The notes under the pieces were generated by a model. The model ran no database searches and had not been told where the DNA came from. It worked only from the letters and a program-made list of their open reading frames with translations. Source: a virus. Taken from it: a stretch of DNA of 15,449 nt. The stretch lies in the UHGV virus genome UHGV-1643955. The stretch is one strand, 5' to 3'. Shown in pieces: positions 234 to 15,449 of this stretch. How positions within the stretch are numbered: position 1 is the stretch's first letter; each line of letters begins with the position of its first letter. A program made the translations under genes and the position numbers.

Positions 234-255
234 AAAAAAGCCGCCAGCAGGCGGC
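234..255 (-). terminator. Rho-independent terminator candidate downstream of Q
   Basis: Plus strand reads aaaaaa(234-239) g ccgcc agca ggcgg c. On the minus strand this is a 6-bp GC stem (GCCGCC/GGCGGC, 240-245 and 250-255) with a 4-nt loop, followed by TTTTTT, starting 5 nt after the Q stop codon (261-263). Confidence 0.6.
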
Positions 256-260
256 GATGT

Positions 261-1295: not shown

Positions 1296-3067
1296 CAGTA
1301 AAACTCCAGAATGGTGGATGTCAGCGGGGTGCTGATACCGGCGGTGAGTGGCTCATTTAACAGGGCGTGCATGGTCGCCCAGGCGAGGTCGGCGTGGCTG
1401 GCTTCCTCGCTGCGGCTGGCCTCATAGGTGGCGCTGCGTCCGCTGCTGGTCATGGTCTTACGGATAGCCATAAACGAGCTGGTGATGTCGGTGGCGCTGA
1501 CGTCGTATTCCAGACAGCCACGGCGGATAACGTCTTTTGCCTTGAGCACCATTGCGGTTTTCATTTCCGGCGTGTAGCGGATGTCGCGCGCGGCAGGATA
1601 GAACGAGCGCACGAGCTGGAACACGCCGACACCGAGGCCGGTGGCATCAATACCGATGTATTCGACGTTGTATTTTTCGGTGAGTTTGCGGATGGATTCC
1701 GCCTGGGTGGCAAAGTCCATGCCTTTCCACTGGTGACGCTCAAGTATTCTGAATTTGCCACCGGCCACCACCGGCGGTGCCAGCACCACGCATCCGGCGC
1801 TGTCGCCACGGTGTGACGGGTCGTAACCAATCCATACCGGGCGGGAGCCGAACGGATTGGCGGCAAAGGGTGCATAGTCTTCCCATTCTTCCAGCGTGTC
1901 GACCATGCAGCGTTGCAGCTCCTCGAACGGGAACACCGATGCCTTGTCGTCAACAAATTCACACATGAACAGGTTTTTAAAATCGTCGGCGCTGTTTTCG
2001 CGTTTGAGCTGCTCAATGTCGAACAGCGTGCAGCCGCCTTTCAGCGCGTCCTCAATGGTGACAATCTGTCGCCACTGGCCGTCCGCACAGAGAAGCCCAC
2101 CGGCAAGGGCGTTATGACTGACGTCGATTTCCACGCGTTCGGCGGCGCTGGCGCGTCCCCGGTTAAACAGTTCACCCGACCAGAACGGGTAGGCGTCGTG
2201 CGCCAGCGTGGACGGGGTGGAGAAATAGGTCGAGCGCAGGTGACTCTGTGAGGCCATACCTGATGCCACCTTACGCAGTACCTGAAAATTCGGGATCCAG
2301 AAAATCTCGTCGACGTACAGGTCGCCGTTATGGCTCTGCGCGGTGTTGGAGTTGGTGCCGAGAAAAATCAGTTTTGCGCCGTTATTGCCCAGGACAATCG
2401 GGTCACCGGTCAGGTCAACGTCAACCTGCCGGGCAAAGGCGATGATGTATTCGCGGAACACATACGCCTGCGTTTTACTGGCCGACAGAAAAATCTGGTT
2501 ATGACCGGTTTTCAGGGCGCGCAGCAGCGCCTCGCGGGAAAAATAAAACGTCGCGCCAATCTGGCGGGATTTCAGGATATCGCGGATGCGGTGCTCAAGC
2601 CCGGCGCGATACCAGTGCAACTGATAGTCGAAAGACTGCTCAAAGAAAATCTGCTCCAGCTTTTCGATAGCCTCGTCACTGAAAAAATTCTTTTTCGGTT
2701 TGCGACGCCCGCCTTTGTTGCGGTTAGCGACGTTCGGATTAAGGTCTGCCTCGTTGCCGGTCTGGCTGTAGCGGTTTACCCGTGCCAGTCGTTCAATCTG
2801 GCGTCCGAGCAGGTCAATTTCCTTGAAGTCACCGCCGGTTTTCTGCGGTTTGATGATGAGCTGGGTCAGCCGCGCTTCCAGGCTCATTTCGACACGGCTG
2901 ATGGGGGCAACGCTGTCCCAGCCGTCGCGCTGTTTCCAGCTCTGCACCGTCGGGCGTTTCATCTGCAACATGGCGGCAATCTGCGGCACGGAAAACCCCT
3001 GCCAGTACAGCAGCGCCGCCTGACGACGCGGGTCGTGTGAAAGAGTGGTGTCTGTGGTGATGGTCAT
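1295..3067 (-). CDS. P: Terminase large (ATPase) subunit, P2 gpP homolog
   Basis: The ORF track gives 600 aa from 3097, but that first codon is TTG (complement of caa at 3095-3097). The first ATG is at 3067 (MTITTDTTLSHD...), giving 590 aa, which matches the P2 gpP length as I recall it. A GAGG lies a few nt upstream on the coding strand. Confidence 0.9.
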   Translation of the reverse strand: MTITTDTTLSHDPRRQAALLYWQGFSVPQIAAMLQMKRPTVQSWKQRDGWDSVAPISRVEMSLEARLTQLIIKPQKTGGDFKEIDLLGRQIERLARVNRYSQTGNEADLNPNVANRNKGGRRKPKKNFFSDEAIEKLEQIFFEQSFDYQLHWYRAGLEHRIRDILKSRQIGATFYFSREALLRALKTGHNQIFLSASKTQAYVFREYIIAFARQVDVDLTGDPIVLGNNGAKLIFLGTNSNTAQSHNGDLYVDEIFWIPNFQVLRKVASGMASQSHLRSTYFSTPSTLAHDAYPFWSGELFNRGRASAAERVEIDVSHNALAGGLLCADGQWRQIVTIEDALKGGCTLFDIEQLKRENSADDFKNLFMCEFVDDKASVFPFEELQRCMVDTLEEWEDYAPFAANPFGSRPVWIGYDPSHRGDSAGCVVLAPPVVAGGKFRILERHQWKGMDFATQAESIRKLTEKYNVEYIGIDATGLGVGVFQLVRSFYPAARDIRYTPEMKTAMVLKAKDVIRRGCLEYDVSATDITSSFMAIRKTMTSSGRSATYEASRSEEASHADLAWATMHALLNEPLTAGISTPLTSTILEFY

Positions 3068-3240
3068 GAATACCTCGCCGTGATGAATACACGGCAAGGC
3101 TACTGAGTCGCGCCACGCGATTCGCTAAGGTGCTGTTGTGTCAGTGATAAGCCATCCGGGACTGATGGCGGAGGATGCGCATCGTCGAGAAACTGATGCC
3201 GACATGTGACTCCTCTACTCACTATTCAGGACTCCTGACA
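3068..3240. promoter_or_regulatory. Divergent intergenic region between P and O; expected site of the P2 late promoters PP (leftward) and PO (rightward)
   Basis: 173-bp gap between divergently transcribed late operons, as in P2. I could not confidently place an Ogr-type TGT-N12-ACA dyad or -10/-35 elements by eye, so this is positional inference only. Confidence 0.4.
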
Positions 3241-4095
3241 ATGGCAAAAAAAGTCTCAAAATTCTTTCGTATCGGCGTTGAGGGTGACACCTGTGACGGG
3301 CGTGTCATCAGTGCGCAGGATATTCAGGAAATGGCCGAAACCTTTGACCCGCGTGTCTATGGTTGCCGCATTAATCTGGAACATCTGCGCGGCATCCTGC
3401 CTGACGGTATTTTTAAGCGTTATGGCGATGTGGCCGAACTGAAGGCCGAAAAGATTGACGATGATTCGGCGCTGAAAGGCAAATGGGCGTTGTTTGCGAA
3501 AATCACCCCGACCGATGACCTTATCGCGATGAACAAGGCCGCGCAGAAGGTCTACACCTCAATGGAAATTCAGCCGAACTTTGCCAACACCGGCAAATGT
3601 TATCTGGTGGGGCTGGCCGTCACCGATGACCCGGCAAGCCTCGGCACGGAATACCTGGAATTCTGCCGCACGGCAAAACACAACCCCCTGAACCGCTTCA
3701 AATTAAGCCCTGAAAACCTGATTTCAGTGGCAACGCCTGTTGAGCTGGAATTTGAAGACCTGCCTGAAACCGTGTTCACCGCCCTGACTGAAAAGGTGAA
3801 GTCCATTTTTGGCCGCAAACAGGCCAGCGATGATGCCCGCTTGAATGATGTGCATGAAGCGGTGACCGCTGTTGCTGAACATGTGCAGGAAAAACTGAGC
3901 GCCACTGAGCAGCGCCTCGCTGAGATGGAAACCGCCTTTTCCGCACTTAAGCAGGAGGTGACTGACAGGGCGGATGAAACCAGCCAGGCATTCACCCGCC
4001 TGAAAAACAGTCTCGACCACACCGAAAGTCTGACCCAGCAGCGCCGCAGCAAGGCCACCGGTGGTGGCGGTGACGCCCTGATGACGAACTGCTGA
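3241..4095 (+). CDS. O: Capsid scaffolding protein, P2 gpO homolog
   Basis: Start taken at ATG 3241 (MAKKVSKFFRIGVEGD...) with AGGA about 10 nt upstream; this gives 284 aa, matching recalled P2 gpO. The upstream ATG at 3175 directly abuts a GGAGG with no spacer, so it is less plausible. Confidence 0.85.
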   Translation: MAKKVSKFFRIGVEGDTCDGRVISAQDIQEMAETFDPRVYGCRINLEHLRGILPDGIFKRYGDVAELKAEKIDDDSALKGKWALFAKITPTDDLIAMNKAAQKVYTSMEIQPNFANTGKCYLVGLAVTDDPASLGTEYLEFCRTAKHNPLNRFKLSPENLISVATPVELEFEDLPETVFTALTEKVKSIFGRKQASDDARLNDVHEAVTAVAEHVQEKLSATEQRLAEMETAFSALKQEVTDRADETSQAFTRLKNSLDHTESLTQQRRSKATGGGGDALMTNC

Positions 4096-4153
4096 CCGGC
4101 GTCAGTCAGTCCGGGAAAACCTTCACGATTAACCCTTAATTTCAGGAAAAACT

Positions 4154-5227
4154 ATGCGCCAGGAAACCCGCTTTAAATTTAATGCTTACCTGTCCCGTGT
4201 TGCCGAACTGAACGGCATCGACGCCGGTGATGTGTCGAAAAAATTCACCGTTGAACCGTCGGTCACCCAGACCCTGATGAACACCATGCAGGAGTCCTCT
4301 GACTTTCTGACCCGCATCAACATTGTGCCGGTCAGCGAAATGAAAGGGGAAAAAATTGGTATTGGTGTCACCGGCTCCATCGCCAGCACCACCGACACCG
4401 CCGGTGGCACCGAGCGTCAGCCGAAGGACTTCTCGAAGCTGGCGTCAAACAAGTACGAATGCGACCAGATTAACTTCGATTTTTATATCCGCTACAAAAC
4501 GCTTGACCTGTGGGCGCGTTATCAGGATTTCCAGCTCCGTGTCCGTAACGCTATTATCAAACGCCAGTCCCTTGATTTCATCATGGCCGGTTTTAACGGC
4601 GTGAAGCGTGCTGAAACCTCTGACCGCAGCAGCAATCCGATGTTGCAGGATGTGGCGGTCGGCTGGCTGCAGAAATACCGCAATGAAGCCCCGGCGCGCG
4701 TGATGAGCAAGGTCACTGACGAGGAAGGCCGCACCACCTCTGAGGTTATCCGCGTGGGTAAGGGCGGTGATTATGCCAGCCTTGATGCACTGGTGATGGA
4801 TGCGACCAACAACCTGATTGAGCCGTGGTATCAGGAAGACCCTGACCTTGTGGTGATTGTGGGACGTCAGCTACTGGCGGACAAGTATTTTCCCATCGTC
4901 AACAGGGAGCAGGACAACAGCGAAATGCTGGCCGCTGACGTCATCATCAGCCAGAAACGCATCGGTAACCTGCCGGCAGTGCGCGTCCCGTACTTCCCGG
5001 CAGATGCGATGCTCATCACGAAGCTGGAAAACCTGTCCATCTACTACATGGATGACAGCCATCGCCGCGTGATTGAGGAAAATCCGAAACTCGACCGCGT
5101 GGAGAACTACGAGTCAATGAATATTGATTACGTGGTGGAAGACTACGCCGCCGGTTGCCTGGTGGAAAAAATTAAGGTCGGTGATTTCTCCACACCGGCC
5201 AGGGCGACCGCAGAGCCGGGAGCGTAA
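4154..5227 (+). CDS. N: Major capsid protein, P2 gpN homolog
   Basis: 357-aa ORF (MRQETRFKFNAYLSRVAELNG...), same length and position as P2 gpN; AGGA upstream of the ATG. Confidence 0.9.
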   Translation: MRQETRFKFNAYLSRVAELNGIDAGDVSKKFTVEPSVTQTLMNTMQESSDFLTRINIVPVSEMKGEKIGIGVTGSIASTTDTAGGTERQPKDFSKLASNKYECDQINFDFYIRYKTLDLWARYQDFQLRVRNAIIKRQSLDFIMAGFNGVKRAETSDRSSNPMLQDVAVGWLQKYRNEAPARVMSKVTDEEGRTTSEVIRVGKGGDYASLDALVMDATNNLIEPWYQEDPDLVVIVGRQLLADKYFPIVNREQDNSEMLAADVIISQKRIGNLPAVRVPYFPADAMLITKLENLSIYYMDDSHRRVIEENPKLDRVENYESMNIDYVVEDYAAGCLVEKIKVGDFSTPARATAEPGA

Positions 5228-5230
5228 CCG

Positions 5231-5974
5231 ATGACGAGTCCCGCACAGCGCCACATGATGCGGGTCTCGGCAGCGATGACCGCGCAGCGGGAAGCCGCCC
5301 CGCTGCGACATGCAACTGTCTATGAGCAGATGCTGGTCAAGCTGGCCGCAGACCAGCGCACACTGAAAGCGATTTATTCAAAAGAGCTTAAGGCCGCGAA
5401 AAAGCGCGAACTGCTGCCGTTCTGGTTGCCGTGGGTGAACGGTGTGCTGGAGCAGGGCAAAGGTGCACAGGATGACATTCTGATGACGGTCATGCTGTGG
5501 CGTCTGGATACCGGCGATATTGCAGGTGCGCTGGAGATTGCCCGTTATGCCCTGAAATACGGTCTGACCATGCCGGGTAAACACCGCCGCACCCCGCCGT
5601 ACATGTTCACCGAGGAGGTGGCGCTCGCGGCCATGCGTGCTCACGCTGCCGGTGAGTCTGTGGATACCCGCCTGCTGACGGAGACCCTTGAACTGACCGC
5701 CACGGCTGACATGCCTGATGAAGTGCGCGCAAAGCTGCACAAAATCACAGGTCTGTTTCTGCGTGATGGTGGTGATGCCGCCGGTGCGCTGGCTCACCTG
5801 CAACGTGCGACACAGCTCGACTGTCAGGCAGGTGTCAAAAAAGAGATTGAACGACTGGAGCGGGAGCTGAAACCGAAGCCGGAGCCGCAGCCCAAAGCGG
5901 CCACCCGTACCCCGCGTAAGACCCGGAGCGTGACACCGGCAAAACGTGGACGCCCGAAAAAGAAAGCCAGTTAA
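5231..5974 (+). CDS. M: Terminase small (endonuclease) subunit, P2 gpM homolog
   Basis: 247-aa ORF starting 3 nt after the N stop, GGAG upstream; basic lysine/proline-rich C-terminus (KPKPEPQPKAATRTPRKTRSVTPAKRGRPKKKAS). Confidence 0.85.
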   Translation: MTSPAQRHMMRVSAAMTAQREAAPLRHATVYEQMLVKLAADQRTLKAIYSKELKAAKKRELLPFWLPWVNGVLEQGKGAQDDILMTVMLWRLDTGDIAGALEIARYALKYGLTMPGKHRRTPPYMFTEEVALAAMRAHAAGESVDTRLLTETLELTATADMPDEVRAKLHKITGLFLRDGGDAAGALAHLQRATQLDCQAGVKKEIERLERELKPKPEPQPKAATRTPRKTRSVTPAKRGRPKKKAS

Positions 5975-6073
5975 CAACCGAATGCGCCCCGCGCCAGGGC
6001 GGCACGCCGGTCAGTGAGGGTGAATCACCTGACACTGCACCGGCGTCCACCGCCCGACTTTTCAGAGGTAGTC

Positions 6074-6583
6074 ATGATGACGCTGATTATTCCGCGAAAG
6101 GAGGCTCCCGTGTCCGGTGAGGGTACGGTGGTCATCCCGCAACCGGCAGGCGACGAGCCGGTGATTAAAAACACGTTCTTTTTTCCCGATATCGACCCGA
6201 AGCGCGTCCGGGAACGTATGCGCCTTGAGCAGACCGTCGCCCCCGCCCGTCTGCGTGAGGCCATCAAGTCAGGCATGGCTGAAACGAATGCGGAGCTGTA
6301 CGAGTACCGCGAACAGAAAATTGCCGCCGGTTTTACGCGTCTGGCTGACGTCCCGGCGGACGACATCGACGGTGAAAGCATCAAAGTTTTTTACTACGAG
6401 CGCGCCGTGTGTGCGATGGCGACCGCATCGCTTTATGAGCGTTACCGCGGCGTGGATGCCAGTGCGAAAGGCGACAAGAAGGCCGACAGCATTGACAGCA
6501 CCATTGATGAACTGTGGCGGGATATGCGCTGGGCGGTGGCGCGTATCCAGGACAAGCCGCGCTGCATCGTGAGTCAAATCTGA
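6074..6583 (+). CDS. L: Head completion/stabilisation protein, P2 gpL homolog
   Basis: Start taken at ATG 6074 (MMTLIIPRKEAP...) with GAGG upstream, giving 169 aa as recalled for P2 gpL. The longer form in the ORF track has no RBS. Confidence 0.85.
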   Translation: MMTLIIPRKEAPVSGEGTVVIPQPAGDEPVIKNTFFFPDIDPKRVRERMRLEQTVAPARLREAIKSGMAETNAELYEYREQKIAAGFTRLADVPADDIDGESIKVFYYERAVCAMATASLYERYRGVDASAKGDKKADSIDSTIDELWRDMRWAVARIQDKPRCIVSQI

Positions 6584-6786
6584 TGAAGACCTTTGCGCTA
6601 CAGGGCGACACGCTCGACGCCATTTGTGTCCGGTATTACGGGCGCACTGAGGGCGTGGTCGAAGCCGTGCTCGCCGCAAATCCGGGACTGGCTGAACTGG
6701 GTGCGGTGCTGCCACACGGCACCGCCGTCGAACTGCCCGACGTTCAGACCGCGCCCGTGGCTGAAACTGTCAATCTGTGGGAGTAA
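6583..6786 (+). CDS. X: Tail protein X, P2 gpX homolog (small LysM-like protein)
   Basis: 67-aa ORF MKTFALQGDTLDAICVRYYGRTEGV...; its ATG overlaps the L stop (tgATGa at 6581-6585). Confidence 0.8.
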   Translation: MKTFALQGDTLDAICVRYYGRTEGVVEAVLAANPGLAELGAVLPHGTAVELPDVQTAPVAETVNLWE

Positions 6787-6789
6787 CGC

Positions 6790-7071
6790 ATGACAGCAGA
6801 AGAAAAAAGCGTCCTGTCGCTTTTCATGATTGGGGTGCTGATTGTTGTCGGCAAGGTGCTTGCCGGTGGTGAACCCATCACCCCGCGTCTGTTTATCGGG
6901 CGCATGTTGCTCGGTGGTTTTGTCTCGATGGTTGCCGGTGTTGTTCTGGTGCAGTTTCCTGACCTGTCACTGCCTGCGGTGTGCGGCATCGGCTCCATGC
7001 TGGGTATCGCCGGTTATCAGGTGATTGAGATTGCCATTCAGCGCCGCTTTAAGGGCAGGGGGAAACCGTAA
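6790..7071 (+). CDS. Y: Holin, P2 gpY homolog
   Basis: 93-aa ORF with hydrophobic transmembrane stretches (LSLFMIGVLIVVGKVLAGG, LLGGFVSMVAGVVLVQF) and a charged C-terminus; first gene of the lysis cassette; GGAG upstream. Confidence 0.85.
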   Translation: MTAEEKSVLSLFMIGVLIVVGKVLAGGEPITPRLFIGRMLLGGFVSMVAGVVLVQFPDLSLPAVCGIGSMLGIAGYQVIEIAIQRRFKGRGKP

Positions 7072-7568
7072 TGCCGGTAATTAACACGCATCAGAATATC
7101 GCCGCCTTTCTCGACATGCTGGCCGCGTCCGAAGGGACGGCGAATCATCCGCTGACGAAAAACCGGGGCTATGACGTGATAGTCACCGGACTGGACGGAA
7201 AGCCGGAAATTTTCACCGACTACAGTGACCACCCGTTCGCGCATGGCCGACCGGCGAAGGTGTTTAACCGTCGCGGTGAAAAATCCACGGCCTCCGGTCG
7301 CTATCAGCAGCTTTACCTGTTCTGGCCGCATTACCGCAAACAGCTTGCCCTGCCGGATTTCAGTCCGTTGTCACAGGACAGACTCGCCATTCAGTTGATC
7401 CGCGAACGCGGTGCACTGGATGACATCCGGGCGGGACGCATTGAGCGCGCCATTTCACGCTGTCGCAATATCTGGGCGTCCCTGCCGGGTGCCGGTTACG
7501 GTCAGCGTGAGCATTCACTGGAAAAACTGGTCACCGTCTGGCGTACCGCCGGCGGCGTACCGGCTTAA
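7071..7568 (+). CDS. K: Endolysin (lysozyme / lytic transglycosylase family), P2 gpK homolog
   Basis: 165-aa ORF; its ATG shares one nt with the Y stop (taATG at 7069-7073); AGGGGG upstream. Confidence 0.9.
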   Translation: MPVINTHQNIAAFLDMLAASEGTANHPLTKNRGYDVIVTGLDGKPEIFTDYSDHPFAHGRPAKVFNRRGEKSTASGRYQQLYLFWPHYRKQLALPDFSPLSQDRLAIQLIRERGALDDIRAGRIERAISRCRNIWASLPGAGYGQREHSLEKLVTVWRTAGGVPA

Positions 7569-7582
7569 ACGGAGTAAACACC

Positions 7583-8008
7583 ATGAAGAAATTATCCCTT
7601 TCACTGATGCTGAACGTGTCGCTGGCGCTGATGCTGGCACTGTCCCTGATTTACCCGCAGAGCGTGGCCGTCAGTTTTGTCGCTGCCTGGGCGATTCTGG
7701 CGACGGTTATCTGTGTGGTTGCCGGTGGTGTCGGCGTGTATGCCACTGAGTATGTACTGGAACGCTACGGGCGGGAGCTGCCGCCGGAATCGATGGCCGT
7801 GAAGATTGTCACGTCGCTGTTTTTGCAGCCGGTGCCGTGGTGCAGACGGGCGGCGGCTCTGGTAGTGATGGTGGCGACGTTTATCTCGCTGGTTGCCGCC
7901 GGGTGGATTTTTACCGCGCTGATTTATCTTGTGGCGTCGCTGTTTTTCCGGCTGATACGTAAAGCCTGTCGTCAGCGTCTTGAGGGGCGGGAACCATGTC
8001 AAAGCTGA
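7583..8008 (+). CDS. lysA: Lysis-timing membrane protein LysA homolog
   Basis: 141-aa ORF, very hydrophobic with several predicted transmembrane segments; GGAG upstream; position after K as in P2. Confidence 0.8.
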   Translation: MKKLSLSLMLNVSLALMLALSLIYPQSVAVSFVAAWAILATVICVVAGGVGVYATEYVLERYGRELPPESMAVKIVTSLFLQPVPWCRRAAALVVMVATFISLVAAGWIFTALIYLVASLFFRLIRKACRQRLEGREPCQS

Positions 8009-8421
8009 TGATTGTGCTGGTTGTGTTGTTATCACTGGCGGTGGCCGGTCTGTTTCTGGCGAAGCATGAAAACGCCAGCCTGCGCACCTCACTGGACAGG
8101 GCGAGCAACGTCGCCAGCGGGCAGCAGACGACCATCACCATGCTGAAAAATCAGCTTCATGTTGCGCTCACCAGGGCAGACAAAAACGAGCTGGCGCAGG
8201 TGGCACTGCGTCAGGAACTGGAGAACGCCGCGAAGCGTGAAGCTCAGCGCGAGAAAACCATCACGAGATTACTCAATGAAAACGAAGATTTTCGCCGCTG
8301 GTATGGCGCTGACCTGCCTGATGCTGTGCGCCGGTTGCACCAGCGTCCGGCCTGCACTGACGCCAGTGATTGTCCCCAACGCCTGCCCGAAAGTGAGCCT
8401 TTGCCCGATGCCGGGCAGTGA
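7996..8421 (+). CDS. lysB: LysB homolog (Rz-like inner-membrane spanin)
   Basis: 141-aa ORF with an N-terminal transmembrane segment (LMIVLVVLLSLAVAGLFLA) and a charged, likely coiled-coil periplasmic part; overlaps the lysA end by 13 nt. Confidence 0.8.
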   Translation: MSKLMIVLVVLLSLAVAGLFLAKHENASLRTSLDRASNVASGQQTTITMLKNQLHVALTRADKNELAQVALRQELENAAKREAQREKTITRLLNENEDFRRWYGADLPDAVRRLHQRPACTDASDCPQRLPESEPLPDAGQ

Positions 8422-8566
8422 CCCGCAGACGAACGGCGATTTAAGTGCCGATATCCGGCAGCTTGAGAACGCGCTGGCACGCTGTGCCAGCCAGGTAAAA
8501 ATGATTAAACACTGTCAGGACGAAAACGATGCTCAAACCCGACAGCCTGCGCAGGGCGCTGACTGA
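8276..8566 (+). CDS. lysC: LysC homolog (Rz1-like outer-membrane lipoprotein spanin), nested in the +1 frame of lysB
   Basis: ATG at 8276 begins MKTKIFAAGMALTCLMLCAGC, a lipoprotein signal peptide with lipobox L-C-A-G-C; 96 aa; starts inside lysB and ends inside R, as in P2. Confidence 0.7.
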   Translation: MKTKIFAAGMALTCLMLCAGCTSVRPALTPVIVPNACPKVSLCPMPGSDPQTNGDLSADIRQLENALARCASQVKMIKHCQDENDAQTRQPAQGAD

Positions 8567-8996
8567 TGCCGTCACGGTGCTGAAAACTAACCCCGATATG
8601 CTGCGGATATTCGTGGATAACGGGAGTATTGCCTCCACACTGGCGACGTCGCTGTCATTCGAAAAGCGTTACACGCTCAATGTCATTGTGACCGACTTTA
8701 CCGGTGATTTTGACCTGCTCATCGTGCCGGTGCTGGCGTGGCTGCGGGAAAATCAGCCCGACATCATGACCACCGACGCAGGCCAGAAAAAGGGCTTCAC
8801 GTTTTATGCAGACATCAACAATGACAGCAGCTTTGATATCAGCATCAGCCTGATGCTGACCGAGCGCACGCTGGTCAGTGAGGTTGACGGTGCGCTGCAT
8901 GTGAAGAATATCCCGGAACCTCCGCCGCCGGAGCCGGTCACCCGCCCGATGGAGCTTTATATCAATGGCGAACTGGTGAGTAAGTGGGATGAATGA
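8529..8996 (+). CDS. R: Tail completion protein, P2 gpR homolog
   Basis: 155-aa ORF (MLKPDSLRRALTDAVTVLKTNPDMLRIFVDNG...), AGGA upstream, same length and position as P2 gpR. Confidence 0.85.
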   Translation: MLKPDSLRRALTDAVTVLKTNPDMLRIFVDNGSIASTLATSLSFEKRYTLNVIVTDFTGDFDLLIVPVLAWLRENQPDIMTTDAGQKKGFTFYADINNDSSFDISISLMLTERTLVSEVDGALHVKNIPEPPPPEPVTRPMELYINGELVSKWDE

Positions 8997-9441
8997 GTTT
9001 AAGCGTTTTGAAGACCGGCTGACCGGACTGATTGAATCGCTGTCACCGTCAGGGCGTCGGCGACTGAGTGCCGAACTGGCGAAACGTCTGCGGCAGAGTC
9101 AGCAGCGTCGGGTGATGGCACAGAAAGCCCCGGACGGCACACCCTACGCGCCACGCCAGCAGCAGAGCGCCAGAAAAAAGACTGGTCGTGTTAAGCGAAA
9201 AATGTTTGCGAAACTTATCACCAGTCGTTTTTTGCATATCCGCGCCAGCCCGGAGCAGGCATCAATGGAGTTTTACGGCGGGAAGTCACCGAAAATCGCC
9301 AGTGTGCATCAGTTCGGTCTGTCGGAAGAAACCCGGAAAGACGGTAAGAAAATTGATTATCCGGCGCGTCCTCTGCTCGGCTTTACCGGTGAGGATGTGC
9401 AGATGATTGAAGAGATTATCCTGGCTCACCTCGACCGTTAG
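8989..9441 (+). CDS. S: Tail completion protein, P2 gpS homolog
   Basis: 150-aa ORF (MNEFKRFEDRLTGLIESLSP...), overlaps the R end by 8 nt. Confidence 0.85.
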   Translation: MNEFKRFEDRLTGLIESLSPSGRRRLSAELAKRLRQSQQRRVMAQKAPDGTPYAPRQQQSARKKTGRVKRKMFAKLITSRFLHIRASPEQASMEFYGGKSPKIASVHQFGLSEETRKDGKKIDYPARPLLGFTGEDVQMIEEIILAHLDR

Positions 9442-9507
9442 TTGTGCCATTCCTGACACCTCATCGTCACATTGCCGCCGGTATGACCCGGCGGCATCCT
9501 TCCCGTT
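9442..9507 (+). promoter_or_regulatory. S-V intergenic region: expected late promoter PV, plus a GC-rich hairpin 12 nt upstream of the V start
   Basis: A TGT...ACA dyad at 9443-9458 (TGTgccattcctgACA) has a 10-nt spacer, not the 12-nt spacing I recall for Ogr sites. A perfect 8-bp GC stem gccgccgg/ccggcggc (9474-9481 and 9488-9495) with loop tatgac follows. No clear Shine-Dalgarno for V. Confidence 0.4.
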
Positions 9508-10143
9508 ATGAACACTCTCGCAAATATTCAGGAACTCGCGCGCGCACTGCGCAACATGATACGCACCGGCCTTGTCGTCGAAACCGACCTTAACGCCGGT
9601 CGCTGCCGTGTGCAGACCGGCGGCATGTGCACTGACTGGCTTCAGTGGCTGACCCATCGTGCCGGACGTTCGCGCACATGGTGGGCACCTTCCGTGGGGG
9701 AACAGGTGCTGATTCTGGCTGTGGGCGGTGAACTCGACACGGCGTTCGTTCTGCCGGGGATTTATTCCGGCGATAACCCCGCGCCGTCTGCGTCGGCGGA
9801 TGCCCTGTATATCCGTTTCCCTGACGGGGCGGTGATTGAGTATGAACCCGAAACCAGTGCACTCACGGTAAGCGGAATTAAAACGGTCAGCGTGACGGCT
9901 TCTGATTCTGTTACTGCCACGGTGCCGGTGGTCATGGTGAAAGCATCAACCCGTGTCACCCTGGACACACCGGAGGTGGTCTGCACCAACAGGCTGATTA
10001 CCGGCACGCTGGAAGTGCAGAAGGGCGGGACGATGCGCGGCAACATTGAACACACCGGCGGTGAACTCTCATCAAACGGTAAGGTACTGCATACCCACAA
10101 ACACCCAGGAGACAGCGGCGGCACAACCGGGAGTCCTCTATGA
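9508..10143 (+). CDS. V: Baseplate spike / assembly protein, P2 gpV homolog
   Basis: 211-aa ORF (MNTLANIQELARALRNMIRTGLVVETDLNAGRCRV...), same length and position as P2 gpV. Confidence 0.9.
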   Translation: MNTLANIQELARALRNMIRTGLVVETDLNAGRCRVQTGGMCTDWLQWLTHRAGRSRTWWAPSVGEQVLILAVGGELDTAFVLPGIYSGDNPAPSASADALYIRFPDGAVIEYEPETSALTVSGIKTVSVTASDSVTATVPVVMVKASTRVTLDTPEVVCTNRLITGTLEVQKGGTMRGNIEHTGGELSSNGKVLHTHKHPGDSGGTTGSPL

Positions 10144-10487
10144 CAGCACGTTATCTCGGAATGAATCGCAGTGATGGCCTGACTGTCACTGACCTTGAGC
10201 ATATCAGCCAGAGTATCGGCGATATCCTGCGCACACCGGTCGGCTCACGGGTGATGCGTCGTGATTACGGCTCGTTGCTGGCATCAATGATTGACCAGCC
10301 GCAGACCCCGGCGCTTGAGTTGCAGATTAAGGTCGCCTGTTACATGGCGGTGCTGAAATGGGAACCCCGCGTCATCCTGTCATCCGTCACCACTGAGCGC
10401 AGTTTTGACGGGCGAATGACGGTCACGTTAACCGGCCAGCACAACGACACCGGCCAGCCACTTTCGTTAACCATCCCTGTGAGTTGA
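10140..10487 (+). CDS. W: Baseplate wedge protein, P2 gpW homolog (gp25-like)
   Basis: 115-aa ORF; ATGA start/stop overlap with V; GGAG upstream. Confidence 0.9.
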   Translation: MTARYLGMNRSDGLTVTDLEHISQSIGDILRTPVGSRVMRRDYGSLLASMIDQPQTPALELQIKVACYMAVLKWEPRVILSSVTTERSFDGRMTVTLTGQHNDTGQPLSLTIPVS

Positions 10488-10491
10488 AACC

Positions 10492-11400
10492 ATGCCGATT
10501 ATCGACCTGAACCAGCTACCCGCACCGGATGTGGTCGAGGAGCTGGACTTTGAAACCATTCTTGCCGAACGCAAGGCGACACTGATTTCCCTTTACCCGG
10601 AAGACCAGCAGGAGGCGGTCGCCCGTACCCTGACGCTGGAATCCGAACCTCTCGTCAAACTGCTGGAGGAAAATGCTTATCGTGAGCTTATCTGGCGTCA
10701 GCGTGTGAATGAGGCCGCACGGGCGGTGATGCTGGCCTGTGCTGCCGGTAATGACCTTGATGTGATTGGTGCCAATTACAACACCACGCGCCTGATTATC
10801 ACCCCGGCAGATGATTCGACTATCCCGCCGACACCGGCAGTGATGGAATCTGACACTGATTATCGTCTGCGTATTCAGCAGGCGTTTGAAGGTTTAAGCG
10901 TCGCCGGGTCGGTGGGTGCCTATCAGTATCATGGTCGCAGTGCCGACGGGCGTGTCGCGGATATCTCTGTCACCAGCCCGTCTCCTGCCTGTGTCACCAT
11001 CTCTGTGCTGTCACGTGAAAATAACGGCGTCGCATCCGAAGACCTGCTGGCTGTGGTGCGTAACGCCCTTAATGGCGAGGACGTCAGGCCGGTGGCCGAC
11101 CGCGTGACCGTGCAGTCTGCCGCCATCGTTGAATACCAGATAAACGCCACGCTTTACCTTTACCCTGGTCCCGAAAGCGAACCCATCCGCGCTGCCGCTG
11201 TGAAAAAGCTGGAAGCGTATATCACGGCACAGCACCGGCTGGGGCGCGACATCCGTCTGTCTGCCATTTATGCCGCTTTGCATGTGGAAGGTGTGCAGCG
11301 TGTCGAACTGGCTGCACCACTGGCCGACATCGTGCTCAACAGTACGCAGGCGTCTTTCTGTACTGAATACCGCGTCGTGACCGGAGGCTCGGATGAGTGA
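10492..11400 (+). CDS. J: Baseplate assembly protein, P2 gpJ homolog
   Basis: 302-aa ORF, same length and position as P2 gpJ. Confidence 0.9.
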   Translation: MPIIDLNQLPAPDVVEELDFETILAERKATLISLYPEDQQEAVARTLTLESEPLVKLLEENAYRELIWRQRVNEAARAVMLACAAGNDLDVIGANYNTTRLIITPADDSTIPPTPAVMESDTDYRLRIQQAFEGLSVAGSVGAYQYHGRSADGRVADISVTSPSPACVTISVLSRENNGVASEDLLAVVRNALNGEDVRPVADRVTVQSAAIVEYQINATLYLYPGPESEPIRAAAVKKLEAYITAQHRLGRDIRLSAIYAALHVEGVQRVELAAPLADIVLNSTQASFCTEYRVVTGGSDE

Positions 11401-11923
11401 TTCGCGACTGCTGCCGACCGGCTCATCACCGCTTGAGGTCGCCGCCGCAAAAGCCTGTGCGGAAATTGAAAAAACGCCGGTCAGTATTCGTGAGCTGTGG
11501 AACCCGGATACCTGTCCGGCAAATTTGCTGCCGTGGCTGGCGTGGGCGTTTTCGGTCGACAGGTGGGATGAGAAGTGGCCGGAAGCGACAAAACGCGCCG
11601 TTATCCGCGATGCGTATTTCATCCACTGTCATAAAGGCACTATAGGTGCAATCCGGCGTGTGGTGGAGCCGCTCGGCTATCTCATCAACGTGACGGAGTG
11701 GTGGGAAAACAGTGACCCGCCCGGCACCTTCCGGCTTGATATTGGTGTACTGGAAAGTGGCATCACAGAGGCAATGTATCAGGAAATGGAACGGCTGATT
11801 GCTGATGCCAAACCTGCAAGCCGCCACCTTATTGGCCTGAACATTACCCGGGACATTCCCGGCTACCTGTTCGCCGGTGGTGTGGCTTACGACGGCGATG
11901 TAATTACGGTTTACCCCGGATAA
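11393..11923 (+). CDS. I: Baseplate protein, P2 gpI homolog
   Basis: 176-aa ORF, overlaps the J end by 8 nt, GGAGG upstream. Confidence 0.85.
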   Translation: MSDSRLLPTGSSPLEVAAAKACAEIEKTPVSIRELWNPDTCPANLLPWLAWAFSVDRWDEKWPEATKRAVIRDAYFIHCHKGTIGAIRRVVEPLGYLINVTEWWENSDPPGTFRLDIGVLESGITEAMYQEMERLIADAKPASRHLIGLNITRDIPGYLFAGGVAYDGDVITVYPG

Positions 11924-11933
11924 GTGAGGAATA

Positions 11934-14228
11934 ATGAGCACAAAATTCAGAACCGTTATCACCACTGCCGGTGCAGCAAAGCTGGCAGCGGCAACCGCAC
12001 CGGGAGGGCGGAAGGTCAACATTACCACGATGGCCGTCGGGGATGGCGGTGGTAAATTGCCTGTCCCGGATGCCGGACAGACCGGGCTTATCCACGAAGT
12101 CTGGCGACATGCGCTGAACAAAATCAGCCAGGACAAACGAAACAGTAATTATATTATCGCAGAGCTGGTTATTCCGCCGGAGGTGGGCGGTTTCTGGATG
12201 CGTGAGCTTGGCCTGTACGATGATGCGGGAACGTTAATTGCTGTGGCGAACATGGCCGAAAGTTATAAGCCAGCTCTTGCCGAAGGCTCAGGGCGTTCGC
12301 AGACCTGCCGCATGGTCATCATCGTCAGCAGTGTGGCCTCAGTGGAGCTGACCATTGACACCACAACGGTGATGGCGACGCAGGATTACGTTGATGACAA
12401 AATTGCAGAGCATGAACAGTCACGACGTCACCCGGACGCCTCGCTGACCGCAAAAGGTTTTACTCAGTTAAGCAGTGCGACCAACAGCACGTCTGAAACA
12501 CTGGCCGCAACGCCGAAAGCGGTAAAGGCCGCCTATGACCTTGCTAACGGGAAATATACTGCGCAGGATGCCACCACGGCGCGAAAAGGCCTTGTTCAGC
12601 TCAGTAGTGCGACCAACAGCACGTCTGAAACGCTCGCCGCAACGCCGAAAGCGGTAAAGGCCGCCTATGACCTTGCTAACGGGAAATACACTGCACAGGA
12701 CGCCACCACCGCGCGAAAAGGTCTTGTCCAGCTCAGTAGCGCCACCAACAGCGATTCTGAAACGCTTGCGGCAACACCAAAGGCGGTTAAGACAGCGTAT
12801 GACCTTGCTAACGGGAAATACACTGCACAGGATGCCACCACGGCGCGAAAAGGTCTTGTCCAGCTCAGTAGCGCCACCAACAGTGATTCTGAAACCCTCG
12901 CGGCAACGCCAAAAGCGGTGAAGTCTGCCTATGACAATGCTGAAAAACGTCTTCAGAAAGATCAGAACGGTGCGGATATTCCGGGAAAGGATACCTTCAC
13001 GAAAAATATCGGTGCCTGTCGTGCTTATAGCGGCGCTTTGAGCACTGAAGCCGGAAACTGGACAACCGCTCAGTTTATTGAATGGCTGGATTCCCGTGGT
13101 GCATTTAATCATCCGTACTGGATGTGCAAAGGCTCCTGGTCATATGCAAATAACAAAATCATTACGGATACCGGATGTGGTGATATCCACCTGGCTGGTT
13201 GTGTCGTCGAAGTCATGGGAACAAAATCTGCAATCACTATTCGAGTGACCACGCCGACAACATCAAGCGGTGGCGGTACAACCAGCGCGCAATTCACTTA
13301 CATTAATCATGGGGACGGCTACTCCCCCGGCTGGCGTCGTGACTGGAATCGTCAGGGCGACGCAATGACCGGAACGATTAATCAGGATGGCGGAAGCCAG
13401 AATGCCTATATGTCTACGGCCTTATGTTCAGGCACCAGAGGCGGCAAAAAATATCTCAGAAAGTTTCGTGGTGGAGAAGGAGACACTATCTGGCATGAAA
13501 CAGTGCAGGGCGGGGTAATTCGCTGGGCGACAGGAAACTATGACGATCAGGAAGAATTATCACTCAGCTCCGCTTATGGTCTCCGTTCTAGAGGTGGAAT
13601 TACATCACTCAGTACTAATGGTCTGCGCATTGCTTATGGCAATTATGGATTCTTTATCAGGAATGATGGCGGCAGCACATATTTAATGCTGACGGCCTCT
13701 GGCGATAAATTTGGGACATGGAACGGTTTAAGACCGCTGACTATCAATAACGCTAATGGCGGAGTGTCAATGGGGCATGGCCTGCGTGTTACTGGTGATA
13801 TTGCCTCAAGTACCAAAGTACGCGCCGGTAGCGGGAAAAAGTTCACGGTCAGCAGCAGTAATACATCCACGAAGGAAGCCGCATTCAATTTGTGGGGAAA
13901 CTCAAGTCGTCCGGTGGTGGCTGAATTAGGTGATGATGCAGGCTGGCATTTTTACAGTCAGAGAAATACAGATAACAGCATCACTTTTGCTGTTAACGGT
14001 CAGGTATCACCATCTAACTATAGTAATTTTGATTCCCGTTATGTACGCGATATCCGGCTTGGGACTCGAGTTGTCCAGACCATGCAGAAAGGGGTGATGT
14101 ATGAGAAAGCAGGGCACGTAATTACCGGGCTTGGTATTATCGGTGAAGTCGATGGTGATGACCCCGCAGTATTCAGACCAATACAAAAATACATCAATGG
14201 CACATGGTATAACGTCGCACAGGTGTAA
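11934..14228 (+). CDS. H: Tail fibre protein, P2 gpH homolog, with expanded internal repeats and a divergent C-terminal receptor-binding region
   Basis: 764-aa ORF with a conserved P2 H-type N-terminus (MSTKFRTVITTAGAAKLAAATAPGG...), GAGGA upstream. It is longer than the 669 aa I recall for P2 gpH, and about 3.7 tandem 44-aa 'tail fibre repeat' units (...QLSSATNSTSETLAATPKAVKAAYDLANGKYTAQDATTARKG...) account for much of the difference. Confidence 0.9.
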   Translation: MSTKFRTVITTAGAAKLAAATAPGGRKVNITTMAVGDGGGKLPVPDAGQTGLIHEVWRHALNKISQDKRNSNYIIAELVIPPEVGGFWMRELGLYDDAGTLIAVANMAESYKPALAEGSGRSQTCRMVIIVSSVASVELTIDTTTVMATQDYVDDKIAEHEQSRRHPDASLTAKGFTQLSSATNSTSETLAATPKAVKAAYDLANGKYTAQDATTARKGLVQLSSATNSTSETLAATPKAVKAAYDLANGKYTAQDATTARKGLVQLSSATNSDSETLAATPKAVKTAYDLANGKYTAQDATTARKGLVQLSSATNSDSETLAATPKAVKSAYDNAEKRLQKDQNGADIPGKDTFTKNIGACRAYSGALSTEAGNWTTAQFIEWLDSRGAFNHPYWMCKGSWSYANNKIITDTGCGDIHLAGCVVEVMGTKSAITIRVTTPTTSSGGGTTSAQFTYINHGDGYSPGWRRDWNRQGDAMTGTINQDGGSQNAYMSTALCSGTRGGKKYLRKFRGGEGDTIWHETVQGGVIRWATGNYDDQEELSLSSAYGLRSRGGITSLSTNGLRIAYGNYGFFIRNDGGSTYLMLTASGDKFGTWNGLRPLTINNANGGVSMGHGLRVTGDIASSTKVRAGSGKKFTVSSSNTSTKEAAFNLWGNSSRPVVAELGDDAGWHFYSQRNTDNSITFAVNGQVSPSNYSNFDSRYVRDIRLGTRVVQTMQKGVMYEKAGHVITGLGIIGEVDGDDPAVFRPIQKYINGTWYNVAQV
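12452..12936 (+). repeat. Tandem 132-bp (44-codon) direct repeats, about 3.7 copies, inside H
   Basis: The motif aaaagg[tc]...cagct[ct]agtag[tc]gc...acggcgcga recurs at 12452, 12584, 12716 and 12848, an exact 132-bp period; the fourth copy diverges after about 12936. Copies differ at only a few positions. Confidence 0.85.
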
Positions 14229-14231
14229 TTT

Positions 14232-14756
14232 ATGCAACATTTAAAAAATATTACTGCGGGTAATCCAAAAACTGTTGCCCAATATCAACTGACAAAAAAT
14301 TTTGATGTTATCTGGTTATGGTCCGAAGAGGGAAAAAACTGGTATGAGGAAGTAAGTAATTTTCAGGAGGACACGATAAAGATTGTTTACGACGAGAATA
14401 ATATAATTGTCGGCATCACCCGAGATGCTTCAACGCTTAACCCTGAAGGTTTTAGCGTTGTTGAGGTTCCTGATATTACTGCCAACCGACGTGCTGATGA
14501 CTCAGGTAAATGGATGTTTAAGGATGGTGCCGTGATTAAGCGGATTTATACGGCAGACGAACAGCAACAACAGGCAGAATCACAAAAGGCCGCGTTACTT
14601 TCCGAAGCGGAAAGCGTTATTCAGCCACTGGAGCGCGCTGTCAGGCTGAACATGGCAACAGATGAGGAGCGTAGCCGACTGGAAGCATGGGAACGCTACA
14701 GTGTTCTGGTCAGCCGTGTGGATCCTGCAAATCCTGAATGGCCGGAAATGCCGTAA
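14232..14756 (+). CDS. G: Tail fibre assembly chaperone, P2 gpG homolog
   Basis: 174-aa ORF immediately after H (4-nt gap). The C-terminus (...[25 protein letters not shown]) resembles the conserved Tfa C-terminal region. The N-terminal half is AT-rich: I counted 19 G+C in the 60 nt of 14281-14340. Confidence 0.85.
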
Positions 14757-14781
14757 TAAGTGATATGATCTCTTGTGTTAG

Positions 14782-14868
14782 TTAACATAGCTATAGTACA
14801 GAGTAAGGCCTAATCTGACAGTCCGCTCTGTGCTAGGAGCGGACATTATCAACATCATGCTATGTTAA
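14782..14868. repeat. Nested inverted repeats at the boundary between G and the AT-rich cargo region
   Basis: Outer 10-bp perfect inverted repeat ttaacatagc (14782-14791) and gctatgttaa (14859-14868). Inside it, a perfect 8-bp stem gtccgctc (14821-14828) and gagcggac (14837-14844) with an 8-nt loop. No T-run follows on either strand, so it is not a canonical intrinsic terminator. Confidence 0.5.
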
Positions 14869-15148
14869 TGTATAAAGTGAAGATAAATTGATATAATAAG
14901 GCCACCATGAATATTTCAGAACCTTGTCAAAAGGTTTGCACATACTCTAGTCTTGCAATGTGTAGTTGATAGTTCCACTGAGGAGGTTCTTCGACATTCT
15001 TTATAAAAATGTACATTTTCATCAATAATAAGAGGTAAAAGGGCTTTAATAGTTTTTTGTGGATGTTATTTCTACTCATAAATTTTGAGATAAGTATTGA
15101 GTTGAGATAAAGTTAAACTCGTTAAATTCACCTTTAAAAGGATAAAGC

Positions 15149-15402
15149 ATGGACTGGAAAGATCTTGCATCAACTGCTGTGTATACAGGTATGACTGATG
15201 AAAATGAAAGCATATGGGAACGTGTTGATGGGGTTGACGTTGCCTTCATAGGTGCCTTTCTTACTGCGCACTTGAGCCTTGAAAAGTATATTACTGATTA
15301 TCTTGGATTAAGATATCCTTCGTTAGCTTGGGGTGATGCAAAACTCACATTTTCACAAAAAATAGCTTTAATACAACATGAGCCTGCAAAACCCCCTTAT
15401 GA
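15149..15402 (+). CDS. Partial ORF of unknown function (5' end only), first cargo gene of the G-FI hotspot; truncated by the contig end and adapter
   Basis: ATG at 15149 preceded by AAGGA (about 15138-15142). Open frame MDWKDLASTAVYTGMTDENESIWERVDGVDVAFIGAFLTAHLSLEKYITDYLGLRYPSLAWGDAKLTFSQKIALIQHEPAKPPYD runs straight into the adapter at 15403. AT-rich, unlike the phage backbone. I do not recognise the protein. Confidence 0.45.
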
Positions 15403-15449
15403 CTGTCTCTTATACACATCTGACGCTGCCGACGATATGCAGTGTGTAG
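15403..15449 (+). other. Illumina Nextera adapter read-through (technical artefact, not biological sequence)
   Basis: CTGTCTCTTATACACATCT (reverse complement of the Tn5 mosaic end) + GACGCTGCCGACGA + TATGCAGT (reverse complement of ACTGCATA, which I recall as i5 index N506/S506) + GTGTAG (start of the reverse-complemented P5 sequence GTGTAGATCTCGGTGG...). Confidence 0.9.

Follow-up and report, generated by a model that had tools for sequence, protein, structure and literature searches.

The tail-fiber region of a P2-type prophage

The window (the whole 15,449-nt stretch of viral DNA analyzed here, from UHGV-1643955) is 96–97% identical to P2 and its relatives over 85–95% of its length, and its open reading frames follow the P2 order, including that of the late operon V-W-J-I-H-G, with DNA identity of 97% up to H. 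On these similarities, we identify the window as a P2-type (Peduovirus) prophage. Genes H and G, which had been correctly called at 11934–14228 and 14232–14756, carry the Pfam domains Phage_tail_fib, four copies of Phage_fiber_2, Gp34_trimer and Caudo_TAP, and the start codon of G (14232) lies 3 nt past the stop codon of H (14226–14228). Searches of NCBIfam with H, G and the cargo protein returned zero matches. The region comprises the following features:

11934–14228, + strand: gene H, tail fiber, 764 aa; open reading frame between I and G, with PF12571, four PF03406 and PF21446
11934–12686, + strand: H aa 1–251, baseplate-anchor domain and first two 44-aa repeats, P2 backbone; 96.0% amino acid identity to P2 H 1–251
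12687–12950, + strand: H aa 252–339, two extra 44-aa Phage_fiber_2 repeats; PF03406 ×4, 81% to P2 H 168–251
12951–13394, + strand: H aa 340–487, Mu S'/P1 Sv'-like cassette, not in P2 H; 8JU3_A, P1 Sv'
13395–13817, + strand: H aa 488–628, shaft segment of Mu S/T4 gp34-gp37 type, not in P2 H; 5YVQ_A, 4UXE/5NXF, Gp34_trimer
13818–13982, + strand: H aa 629–683, P2-type pre-tip segment; 76% to P2, 82% to vB_YpM_41 S
13983–14225, + strand: H aa 684–764, conserved distal tip (...NFDSRYVRDIRLGTRVVQ...RPIQKYINGTWYNVAQV); identity across phages, 5YVQ_A
14232–14756, + strand: gene G, tail-fiber assembly chaperone (Tfa/Caudo_TAP), 174 aa; PF02413, 5YVQ_B
14232–14492, + strand: G 5' half, the most AT-rich coding stretch, vB_YpM_46 type, fiber-binding N-domain by homology; G+C and mismatch counts
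14493–14756, + strand: G 3' half, 569R9/L-413C type, helical C-domain by homology; mismatch counts
14757–14854, + strand: conserved post-G stretch ending in a hairpin (14821–14844); P2 homology ends at 14854

The N-terminal baseplate-attachment domain of H is present, with PF12571 (Phage_tail_fib) scoring 197 bits against a cutoff of 23 at aa 1–151. In G, PF02413 (Caudo_TAP) scores 125 bits against a cutoff of 22.1 at aa 40–174; the protein also matches phrog_136 and, over residues 1–174, the Mu U chain of the solved Mu fiber complex (5YVQ_B; E 1e-103).

Mosaic structure of gene H

We mapped the mosaic from blastn and blastp segment identities and from a 100-nt identity track against five phages. 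DNA identity to P2 is 97–98% up to position 12659; there is no match over 12660–13835, and identity is 82.5% over 13836–14854. Breakpoints fall at approximately 12687, 12951, 13818 and 13983, with a further one at approximately 14481–14553 within G. Outside the Peduoviruses, parts of distal H are best matched by P1/Mu (S') and by T4-like gp34/gp37.

There are four copies of the Phage_fiber_2 repeat in this H and two in P2 H, and Tandem Repeats Finder reports a period of 132 with 3.5 copies and 89% matches at 12480–12935. The cassette that follows (H 340–487) matches residues 183–332 of PDB 8JU3_A (Mu S/S'; E 1e-77 for the chain) and is 82% identical to P1 Sv'. Over H 340–626, identity to the Sv cassette of vB_YpM_41 is 84.7%; that cassette lies beside a hin invertase and has another tip and a U'-type chaperone. 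The shaft segment (H 488–628) is 54–64% identical to T4-like distal fiber proteins, and within it H 550–627 matches residues 268–343 of 5YVQ_A together with the T4 gp34 structures 4UXE/5NXF (E 1e-24), while Gp34_trimer (PF21446), the C-terminal trimerization domain of T4 gp34, scores 86 bits against a cutoff of 27 at aa 542–604.

Beyond the shaft, H 629–764 is 78.7% identical to P2 H 534–669, the P2-homologous C-terminal tip thus being present. The C-terminal peptide for which the original prediction had found no match in P2 H is half foreign, as supposed, but its segment GSGKKFTVSSSNTSTKEAAFNLWG aligns with GDSKKFSLSSSNTSTKNITFNLWG of P2 H, and the P2-type C-terminus starts within the peptide. 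The pre-tip segment (H 629–683), unrelated (11–19%) to L-413C, 569R9, P1 S, P1 Sv' and the vB_YpM_41 Sv cassette, is kept or missing as one unit across IMG/VR loci. The fold of this segment is predicted from one source, its similarity to P2 H; an AlphaFold2 monomer of H 552–764 computed without an alignment was unusable (mean pLDDT 34, pTM 0.20). The distal tip itself (H 684–764) is 72–99% identical in P2, Wphi, L-413C, 569R9, P1 S and vB_YpM_41 S, and matches Mu S 413–503 in 5YVQ_A.

Among uncultivated phages, we used a sample of 80 viral contigs from IMG/VR whose G is at least 91% identical to that of the window. This G is carried by roughly 537 IMG/VR loci and roughly 1,500 E. coli loci. 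Every sampled locus whose H open reading frame reaches 300 aa keeps at least 74% identity over the last 81 aa of H. The H reading frames range from 644 to 1105 aa in at least 10 architectures, each adjoining a G at least 91% identical and bearing a tip at least 74% identical. Judged by these identities, the constant partners are G and the final 81 aa of H, and the part swapped relative to P2 is the middle of H (aa 252–628). The chaperone had been proposed as the partner exchanged along with the receptor-binding domain, an idea that the conservation of both does not support: G is 92.5% identical to that of P2, and the tip stays at or above 74% over at least 10 architectures. A constant tip and G with an exchangeable middle should be useful to those who engineer P2 fibers.

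A crossover within gene G

Comparison of G with P2 G gives 92.5% identity, with P1 U 92% and with Mu U (PDB 5YVQ) 89.7%; by its identities and mismatch pattern, G is of the common P2/P1/Mu type and itself recombinant. The H tip and the 5' half of G together differ from YpM_46 at 7 positions (510 nt) and from 569R9 at 51 (470 nt); over 14493–14844 (352 nt), there are 2 mismatches to 569R9 versus 32 to YpM_46. These counts place a crossover inside G at approximately 14481–14553 (Fisher p 5e-11 and 1e-7). By analogy with the Mu protein, whose Tfa domain roles are summarized in PMC9608196, G would be required for folding and trimerization of the fiber and for binding of its distal end.

Among 79 loci, identity of the H tip to that of the window correlates with identity of the G 5' half (Spearman 0.68) and not with that of the 3' half (-0.01), in a set of related, non-independent IMG/VR sequences for which physical adjacency would by itself be enough to tie the tip to the 5' half. 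Tip and chaperone are only loosely coupled: G shares 89.7% identity with Mu U, whereas the H tip shares just 49.5% with the Mu S tip. Midway through G, G+C rises sharply from 0.38 to 0.52, at the same place as the Tfa domain boundary and the crossover in the window. A tentative generalization, which we consider doubtful, is that the linker between the Tfa domains serves generally as a selected joint for recombination, with the fiber-binding N-domain moving with fiber tips and the helical C-domain staying with the resident phage. If true, this joint would amount to a rule for the co-evolution of chaperones and fibers, and we found no such rule stated for P2/P1/Mu in the accessible literature.

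Sequences downstream of G

Six phages align as far as the hairpin at 14821–14844 and then diverge at once. The hairpin has a folding energy of -18.3 kcal/mol (z -1.2), not significantly more stable than shuffled sequence, and a terminator scan 3' of G found none. In P2-type relatives, G is followed by cargo and then directly by FI; a full-length homologue of the post-G reading frame had no match in Pfam or PADLOC.

An invertible tail-fiber segment (Mu G, P1 C or a hin-type shufflon) was also considered and was rejected, there being no invertase, crossover site or opposed cassette in the window. The H 339/340 boundary might have been left over from a former inversion site, but a search for gix/cix/hix-type sites (AAACCNNGGTTT-type, at most 1 mismatch) gave 0 matches in the window, and no opposed fiber or Tfa reading frame follows G within it. 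Inversion of the homologous cassette is confined to vB_YpM_41 and P1, and the crossover site of vB_YpM_41 lies about 11 codons upstream of the point homologous to H 339/340.

Base composition along H and G

The original prediction rested on G+C counts of 28/60 at 13561–13620 and 19/60 at 14281–14340, both exact on recount, and its observation that the C-terminal region of H and G are AT-rich is borne out: G+C is 0.49–0.46 in distal H (0.490 in aa 340–628, 0.467 in aa 629–764) and 0.383 in the 5' half of G (14232–14492), versus 0.568 in the backbone (73–11933). Values for H aa 1–251 (0.558), the extra repeats (0.545) and the 3' half of G (14493–14756; 0.519) complete the profile. Set against 232 backbone windows of 300 nt (mean 0.568, sd 0.030, minimum 0.48), the 300 nt at 14100–14399 have a G+C of 0.387 (z -6.1) and those at 13900–14199 a G+C of 0.45 (z -4.0). 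The span of 13000–14756 originally assigned to a low-G+C module does not hold, as the shift begins at approximately 12900–12950, where the repeats end, and goes on past G, deepening to 0.30–0.36 at 14757–15400.

The same profile is found in P2 (0.489 in H 252–533, 0.453 in H 534–669, 0.368 in the 5' half of G and 0.506 in the 3' half), in P1 U, P1 U' and vB_YpM_41 tfa2, and in all of the 80 IMG/VR loci (80/80), whose G+C is 0.356–0.398 in the 5' half of G and 0.496–0.542 in the 3' half. Low G+C over distal H and G is therefore the normal composition of these genes among P2 relatives: it is a family trait and not evidence of recent import into this prophage. Because the whole P2-type family has the dip, it is unusable as evidence of recent transfer in such phages.

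Distribution of the fiber allele

In addition to vB_YpM_46, the H allele occurs in VB-YPM-4, P37, YpM_115/117 and GMS190, and a search of 5,426 complete E. coli genomes found it in 193. The full arrangement at 12951–15398 recurs at 98–99% in many genomes (dozens of complete E. coli), with the genes annotated as tail fiber protein and tail fiber assembly protein. Yersinia pestis EV76 was the isolation host of phages bearing this same H, and prophages that encode it are common in E. coli. The drop in G+C over H and G is real, yet the finding is ordinary, because P2 and its relatives all show the drop and this version of the fiber had been seen before in isolated phages and in many E. coli genomes. 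The allele hints at a possible adsorption target of the prophage and otherwise matters little beyond annotation.

Origin of the AT-rich region

Homology with P2 H/G and with the solved structure of Mu S/U suggests that the fiber is built from three H chains, with the N-terminus of H (aa 1–151) docking on the baseplate and the repeats and middle modules forming the shaft. The C-terminal tip would touch the cell surface, most likely at the LPS core if P2, L-413C and Mu are a guide, while the N-terminal domain of G would bind distal H and its helical C-terminal domain would aid trimerization. On the same analogies, the distal H/G region plausibly sets host range. Relative to P2, the allele probably arose by recombination in which two 44-aa repeats were added and a Mu S'/P1 Sv'-like cassette and a Mu S/T4 gp34-like shaft module took the place of P2 H 252–533, the P2-type tip being kept; the 5' half of G appears to travel with the H tip and the 3' half with the downstream cargo. 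As for the low G+C, the cassettes have probably long circulated among phages of lower G+C than the P2 backbone.

The original prediction envisaged a single low-G+C block (~13000–14756), consisting of a receptor-binding domain and its cognate chaperone, that was imported jointly from a foreign phage lineage of low G+C and left the drop as its footprint. The fall in P2 identity from 97–98% to no match or 82.5% across 12660–14854, the best matches of distal H to P1/Mu and T4-like fibers outside the Peduoviruses, and the co-variation of tip and G 5' half identity across loci would all fit such an event, and the host-recognition end and chaperone do have a history unlike that of the backbone. However, P2 and every relative examined share the G+C profile, so the composition is no sign of recent import here; the region is not one module, being divided by at least five internal breakpoints with the nearest relative differing each time; G is 90–97% identical to the common P2/P1/Mu type under any H architecture; and its two halves have different nearest relatives. 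We therefore regard a joint import as very improbable. Two findings had been named as refuting it, equal identity to P2 in distal H and G and in the rest of the operon, and a drop in G+C that is normal among P2 relatives; the latter is the case and the former is not. The observation behind the proposal is confirmed, and the interpretation is partly supported.

It is also unlikely, though slightly less so, that low G+C is unrelated to ancestry and is forced by the amino acid composition of fibers and chaperones (Asn, Lys, Ile, Ser, Thr). K, N, I, D, E and Y residues are indeed abundant in the N-terminal half of G, and where these proteins are conserved, so is the composition; yet AT-richness extends to third codon positions, on which the protein sequence imposes little constraint (GC3 of 0.345 in the 5' half of G and 0.39–0.51 in distal H segments versus 0.58–0.72 in backbone genes), and the drop is therefore not caused by amino acid composition alone. 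That the locus is a decaying remnant, whether a non-functional chimera from illegitimate recombination or an assembly artifact in the 132-bp repeats, strikes us as extremely improbable: the contig derives from short-read data, has adapter sequence at its end and contains repeats of a period prone to mis-assembly, but the H and G reading frames are intact, the plaque-forming phage vB_YpM_46 has a fiber of equal length and 99.2% identity, and this H gene, 2295 nt long, is also annotated in complete E. coli genomes. Very probably, then, the AT-rich stretch is made up of the distal half of tail-fiber gene H and the assembly-chaperone gene G of a P2-type prophage, its low G+C inherited from a pool of modules, and its H a known allele that differs from that of P2.

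Comparison with known systems

Segments of H match fibers of Mu and P1: H 552–627 and 676–763 match Mu S (5YVQ, 8JU3, with Tfa U), and H 340–487 matches Mu S' and P1 Sv' (82%). Unlike Mu and P1, the window has no invertase, gix/cix-type site or opposed second cassette; its N-terminal anchor is of the P2 type, and its tip is 49.5% identical to the Mu S tip. P2 gpH and gpG occupy the same operon position and have an identical G+C profile along H and G, whereas P2 H has 669 aa rather than 764 and two repeats rather than four, P2 H 252–533 is unrelated to H 340–628 of the window, and the DNA of tip and G is 82.5% identical versus 97–98% in the backbone.

Yersinia phage L-413C differs in the length of its gpH (913 aa), in a middle without a match to aa 340–683 of the window and in an H N-terminus just 85% identical, but its G is 96.6% identical and its gpH likewise combines a P2-like N-terminus and extreme C-terminus with a foreign, mosaic middle, the same mosaic logic that was described for it by Garcia 2008, as summarized in PMC7460101. 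Horizontal transfer of P2 tail-fiber genes among unrelated phages is the subject of a 1992 paper by Haggard-Ljungquist et al., to judge from its title as given in PMC13100340. The closest system is vB_YpM_46 (NC_055845; also VB-YPM-4, P37, vB_YpM_115/117 and GMS190), which differs in the cargo 3' of G and in the 3' half of G and the post-G stretch (32 mismatches in 352 nt), where the window matches Escherichia phage vB_EcoM-569R9 and L-413C instead, but which has an H of 764 aa with 99.2% amino acid identity, a G with 97.7%, and DNA 97–100% identical across 12900–14400.

Mosaic structure of the tail-fibre region

P2 and its relatives, among them Wphi, L-413C, many P2-like phages plated on Yersinia pestis, and Escherichia phage vB_EcoM-569R9 (569R9), match the whole window at 96–97% identity over 85–95% of the query (megablast against phage records). 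Position 1 of P2 cosL corresponds to window position 73, and the ORFs run in the sequence annotated for P2 (Q, P, O, N, M, L, X, Y, K, lysA, lysB, R, S, V, W, J, I, H, G). P2 orf30 (P2 9439-10224; nonessential, minus strand) is missing at 9444-9507, leaving an S-V gap of only ~64 nt; Wphi and L-413C have this short gap too, but vB_YpM_46, unlike the window, retains a homologue. The distal features are:

11934-14228, H, tail-fibre ORF, 764 aa
H aa 1-151, Phage_tail_fib (Pfam)
H, four repeats, Phage_fiber_2 (Pfam)
H aa 542-604, Gp34_trimer (Pfam)
14232-14756, G, tail-fibre assembly chaperone (Tfa) ORF, 174 aa, Caudo_TAP (Pfam)
From ATG 15149, + strand, cargo ORF interrupted by the contig end, matching only phrog_5483 (unknown function)

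In DNA, the window matches P2 at 97.7% over 73-9443 and at 97.0% over 9508-12659; the match disappears over 12660-13835 except for repeat cross-hits and returns at 82.5% over 13836-14854. The mosaic history of this region is real. At the protein level, H 1-251 shares 96% identity with P2 H; H 252-339 consists of two additional copies of a 44-aa repeat (Tandem Repeats Finder: period 132, 3.5 copies, 12480-12935); H 340-628 has no P2 H counterpart; H 629-764 aligns with P2 H 534-669 at 78.7% identity; and G is 92.5% identical to P2 G. A C-terminal peptide of H described earlier as unmatched to P2 straddles the 628/629 junction, and the description fails for its second half, GSGKKFTVSSSNTSTKEAAFNLWG, which is P2-like. 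Over 11700-12500 (the end of I and the H anchor), the window is 96–100% identical in DNA to P2, Wphi and vB_YpM_46 but only 68–85% identical to 569R9 and L-413C; the anchor end, too, therefore falls into two or more diverged classes of allele in close relatives.

Base composition does not mark the exchange

The original prediction read a low-G+C block at 13000-14756 as a receptor-binding domain and its chaperone exchanged together. Its two 60-nt G+C counts were exact on recount, and the AT-richness of distal H and G is well beyond chance: all 232 of the 300-nt windows taken along the backbone reach at least 0.48, whereas 14100-14399 stands at 0.387 (z -6.1 vs backbone windows). GC3 is 0.345–0.51 across distal H and the G 5' half vs 0.58–0.72 in backbone genes, so the drop is more than amino-acid composition alone.

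G+C content along the window
Backbone, 73-11933: 0.568
H aa 1-251: 0.558
Extra repeats of H: 0.545
H aa 340-628: 0.490
H aa 629-764: 0.467
G 5' half: 0.383
G 3' half: 0.519
After G: 0.355

The profile is not specific to this prophage. At homologous cuts, P2 has 0.489 (H 252-533), 0.453 (H 534-669), 0.368 (G 5' half) and 0.506 (G 3' half), and the step inside the chaperone gene recurs in P1 U (0.406/0.498 for 5'/3' halves), P1 U' (0.375/0.469) and tfa2 of Yersinia phage vB_YpM_41 (0.368/0.513). In 80 IMG/VR loci with G at least 91% identical to that of the window, the halves of G range over 0.356–0.398 (5') and 0.496–0.542 (3'), and the last 411 nt of H, wherever the ORF was recovered, have about 0.43–0.47. 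Composition is thus normal for P2 relatives and cannot serve as a marker of exchange. Of the two outcomes that the original prediction named as refuting it, this one is observed, but the other is not, since identity to P2 differs from that of the rest of the operon.

The middle of H is exchanged, whereas the tip and G are constant

H 340-487 matches residues 183-332 of 8JU3_A, a Mu G(-) fibre construct of solved structure (E 1e-77 for the chain), and shares 82% identity with P1 Sv'; H 550-627 matches both Mu S (5YVQ_A 268-343) and the T4 gp34 structures 4UXE and 5NXF, with 54–64% identity to T4-like distal fibre proteins; and H 676-763 matches Mu S 413-503. The entire 340-626 segment is 84.7% identical in amino acids to a vB_YpM_41 cassette (OR545054, 5998-7095) adjoining a hin-type invertase, where it is followed by another tip and then a U'-type chaperone.

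The vB_YpM_41 record is circular, 49 kb long and has no taxonomy assigned; in it the invertase lies beside two opposed fibre-tip and chaperone cassettes (5329-10425), all cassette genes being annotated as hypothetical only. The segment shared with H is preceded, ~11 codons upstream, by a gix-like site, TTCGCAAAAACCTCGGTTTGCAGGAA. Neither a gix/cix-like site nor a second cassette was found in the window, so its H allele is fixed rather than invertible.

G is 96–98% identical to G of other Peduoviruses, 92% to P1 U, 89.7% to Mu U (5YVQ_B, E 1e-103) and 88.5% to vB_YpM_41 tfa2, and only 54–57% to the U' type. Essentially the same G follows IMG/VR H ORFs of 644, 671, 683, 698, 742, 766, 911-915, 930 and 1105 aa, in every one of which the last 81 aa of H (the tip) match the window at 74% identity or more. 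Residues 629-683 are either P2-type (73–100%) or unrelated (9–18%), and a full 340-628 block occurs only in the 766-aa and 698-aa classes, plus two ORFs of 617 and 678 aa. It is therefore the extreme tip and G that stay constant together, and the middle of H that is exchanged. Coupling between tip and chaperone is coarse. Tips of the P2, P1 S and Mu S type pair with G/U-type chaperones and Sv'-type tips with the U' type; the Mu tip is only 49.5% identical to that of the window though within the same pairing class.

Comparison with two relatives indicates that G is itself recombinant:

Mismatches in 13983-14492 (tip and G 5' half) and 14493-14844 (G 3' half and post-G)
vB_YpM_46: 7/510 nt and 32/352 nt (Fisher p 1e-7)
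569R9: 51/470 nt and 2/352 nt (Fisher p 5e-11)

The crossover, between about 14481 and 14553, coincides with the G+C step and with the boundary between the two Tfa domains: an N-domain that attaches to the distal fibre and a helical, conserved C-domain that brings about trimerisation (Mu work as summarised in PMC9608196). Across 79 loci, tip identity to the window correlates with that of the G 5' half (Spearman 0.68) and not with that of the 3' half (-0.01), a pattern that fits functional linkage but could equally reflect adjacency and shared ancestry, because the loci are not independent. The original prediction is partly supported: the history is mosaic, but there is no single exchanged module, and its emphasis on tip and chaperone as the exchanged pair is reversed.

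Sequence downstream of G

The ~98 nt after G (14757-14854), conserved in P2, Wphi, L-413C, vB_YpM_46 and 569R9, end at a 9-bp GC-rich hairpin (14821-14844), beyond which all six sequences diverge completely; judged from the alignment, this stretch looks like the fixed left edge of a variable cargo locus. No terminator was called after G, the hairpin lacking a T-run and its stability not being significant (z -1.2). The very AT-rich 14857-15402 (G+C 0.30–0.36) lies where P2 has its Z/fun cargo locus, which has been named as a site of antiviral genes (PMC13586616). Among 5,426 complete E. coli genomes, 49 carry this stretch at 99% identity or more. A full-length 183-aa 569R9 homologue of its ORF had no Pfam, PADLOC or NCBIfam match, and the ORF is a candidate moron or defence gene of unknown function. 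Homology to 569R9 ends exactly at 15402, and 15403-15449 consists of what we take to be Illumina Nextera adapter read-through (CTGTCTCTTATACACATCT, GACGCTGCCGACGA, the 8-nt index TATGCAGT and GTGTAG), so these 47 terminal bases are of non-biological origin.

Proposed function and comparison with known systems

By homology, H trimers most likely would dock on the baseplate via aa 1-151, the repeats and S'/gp34-like modules would lengthen the fibre shaft, the tip would contact the cell surface, and G would aid folding of the distal end. The P2 receptor is LPS (PMC9594776), and the two fibres of Mu recognise the outer and inner LPS core (PMC11821841). Phages carrying the window-type H were isolated on Y. 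pestis EV76, but the same host also yielded phages whose H is of the P2 or L-413C type; isolation host therefore does not reveal the specificity of this allele.

The arrangement of H and G is already known and presents nothing new in kind. A 1992 paper reportedly states, in its title, horizontal transfer of P2 tail-fibre genes among unrelated phages. The H allele shares 99.2% identity with the vB_YpM_46 fibre and occurs in 193 of 5,426 complete E. coli genomes, and the whole of 12951-15398, including the post-G cargo, is found at 98–99% in many genomes, whose annotations read "tail fiber protein" and "tail fiber assembly protein". The same design, P2-like ends around a foreign mosaic middle, is described for L-413C gpH (Garcia 2008, as summarised in PMC7460101).
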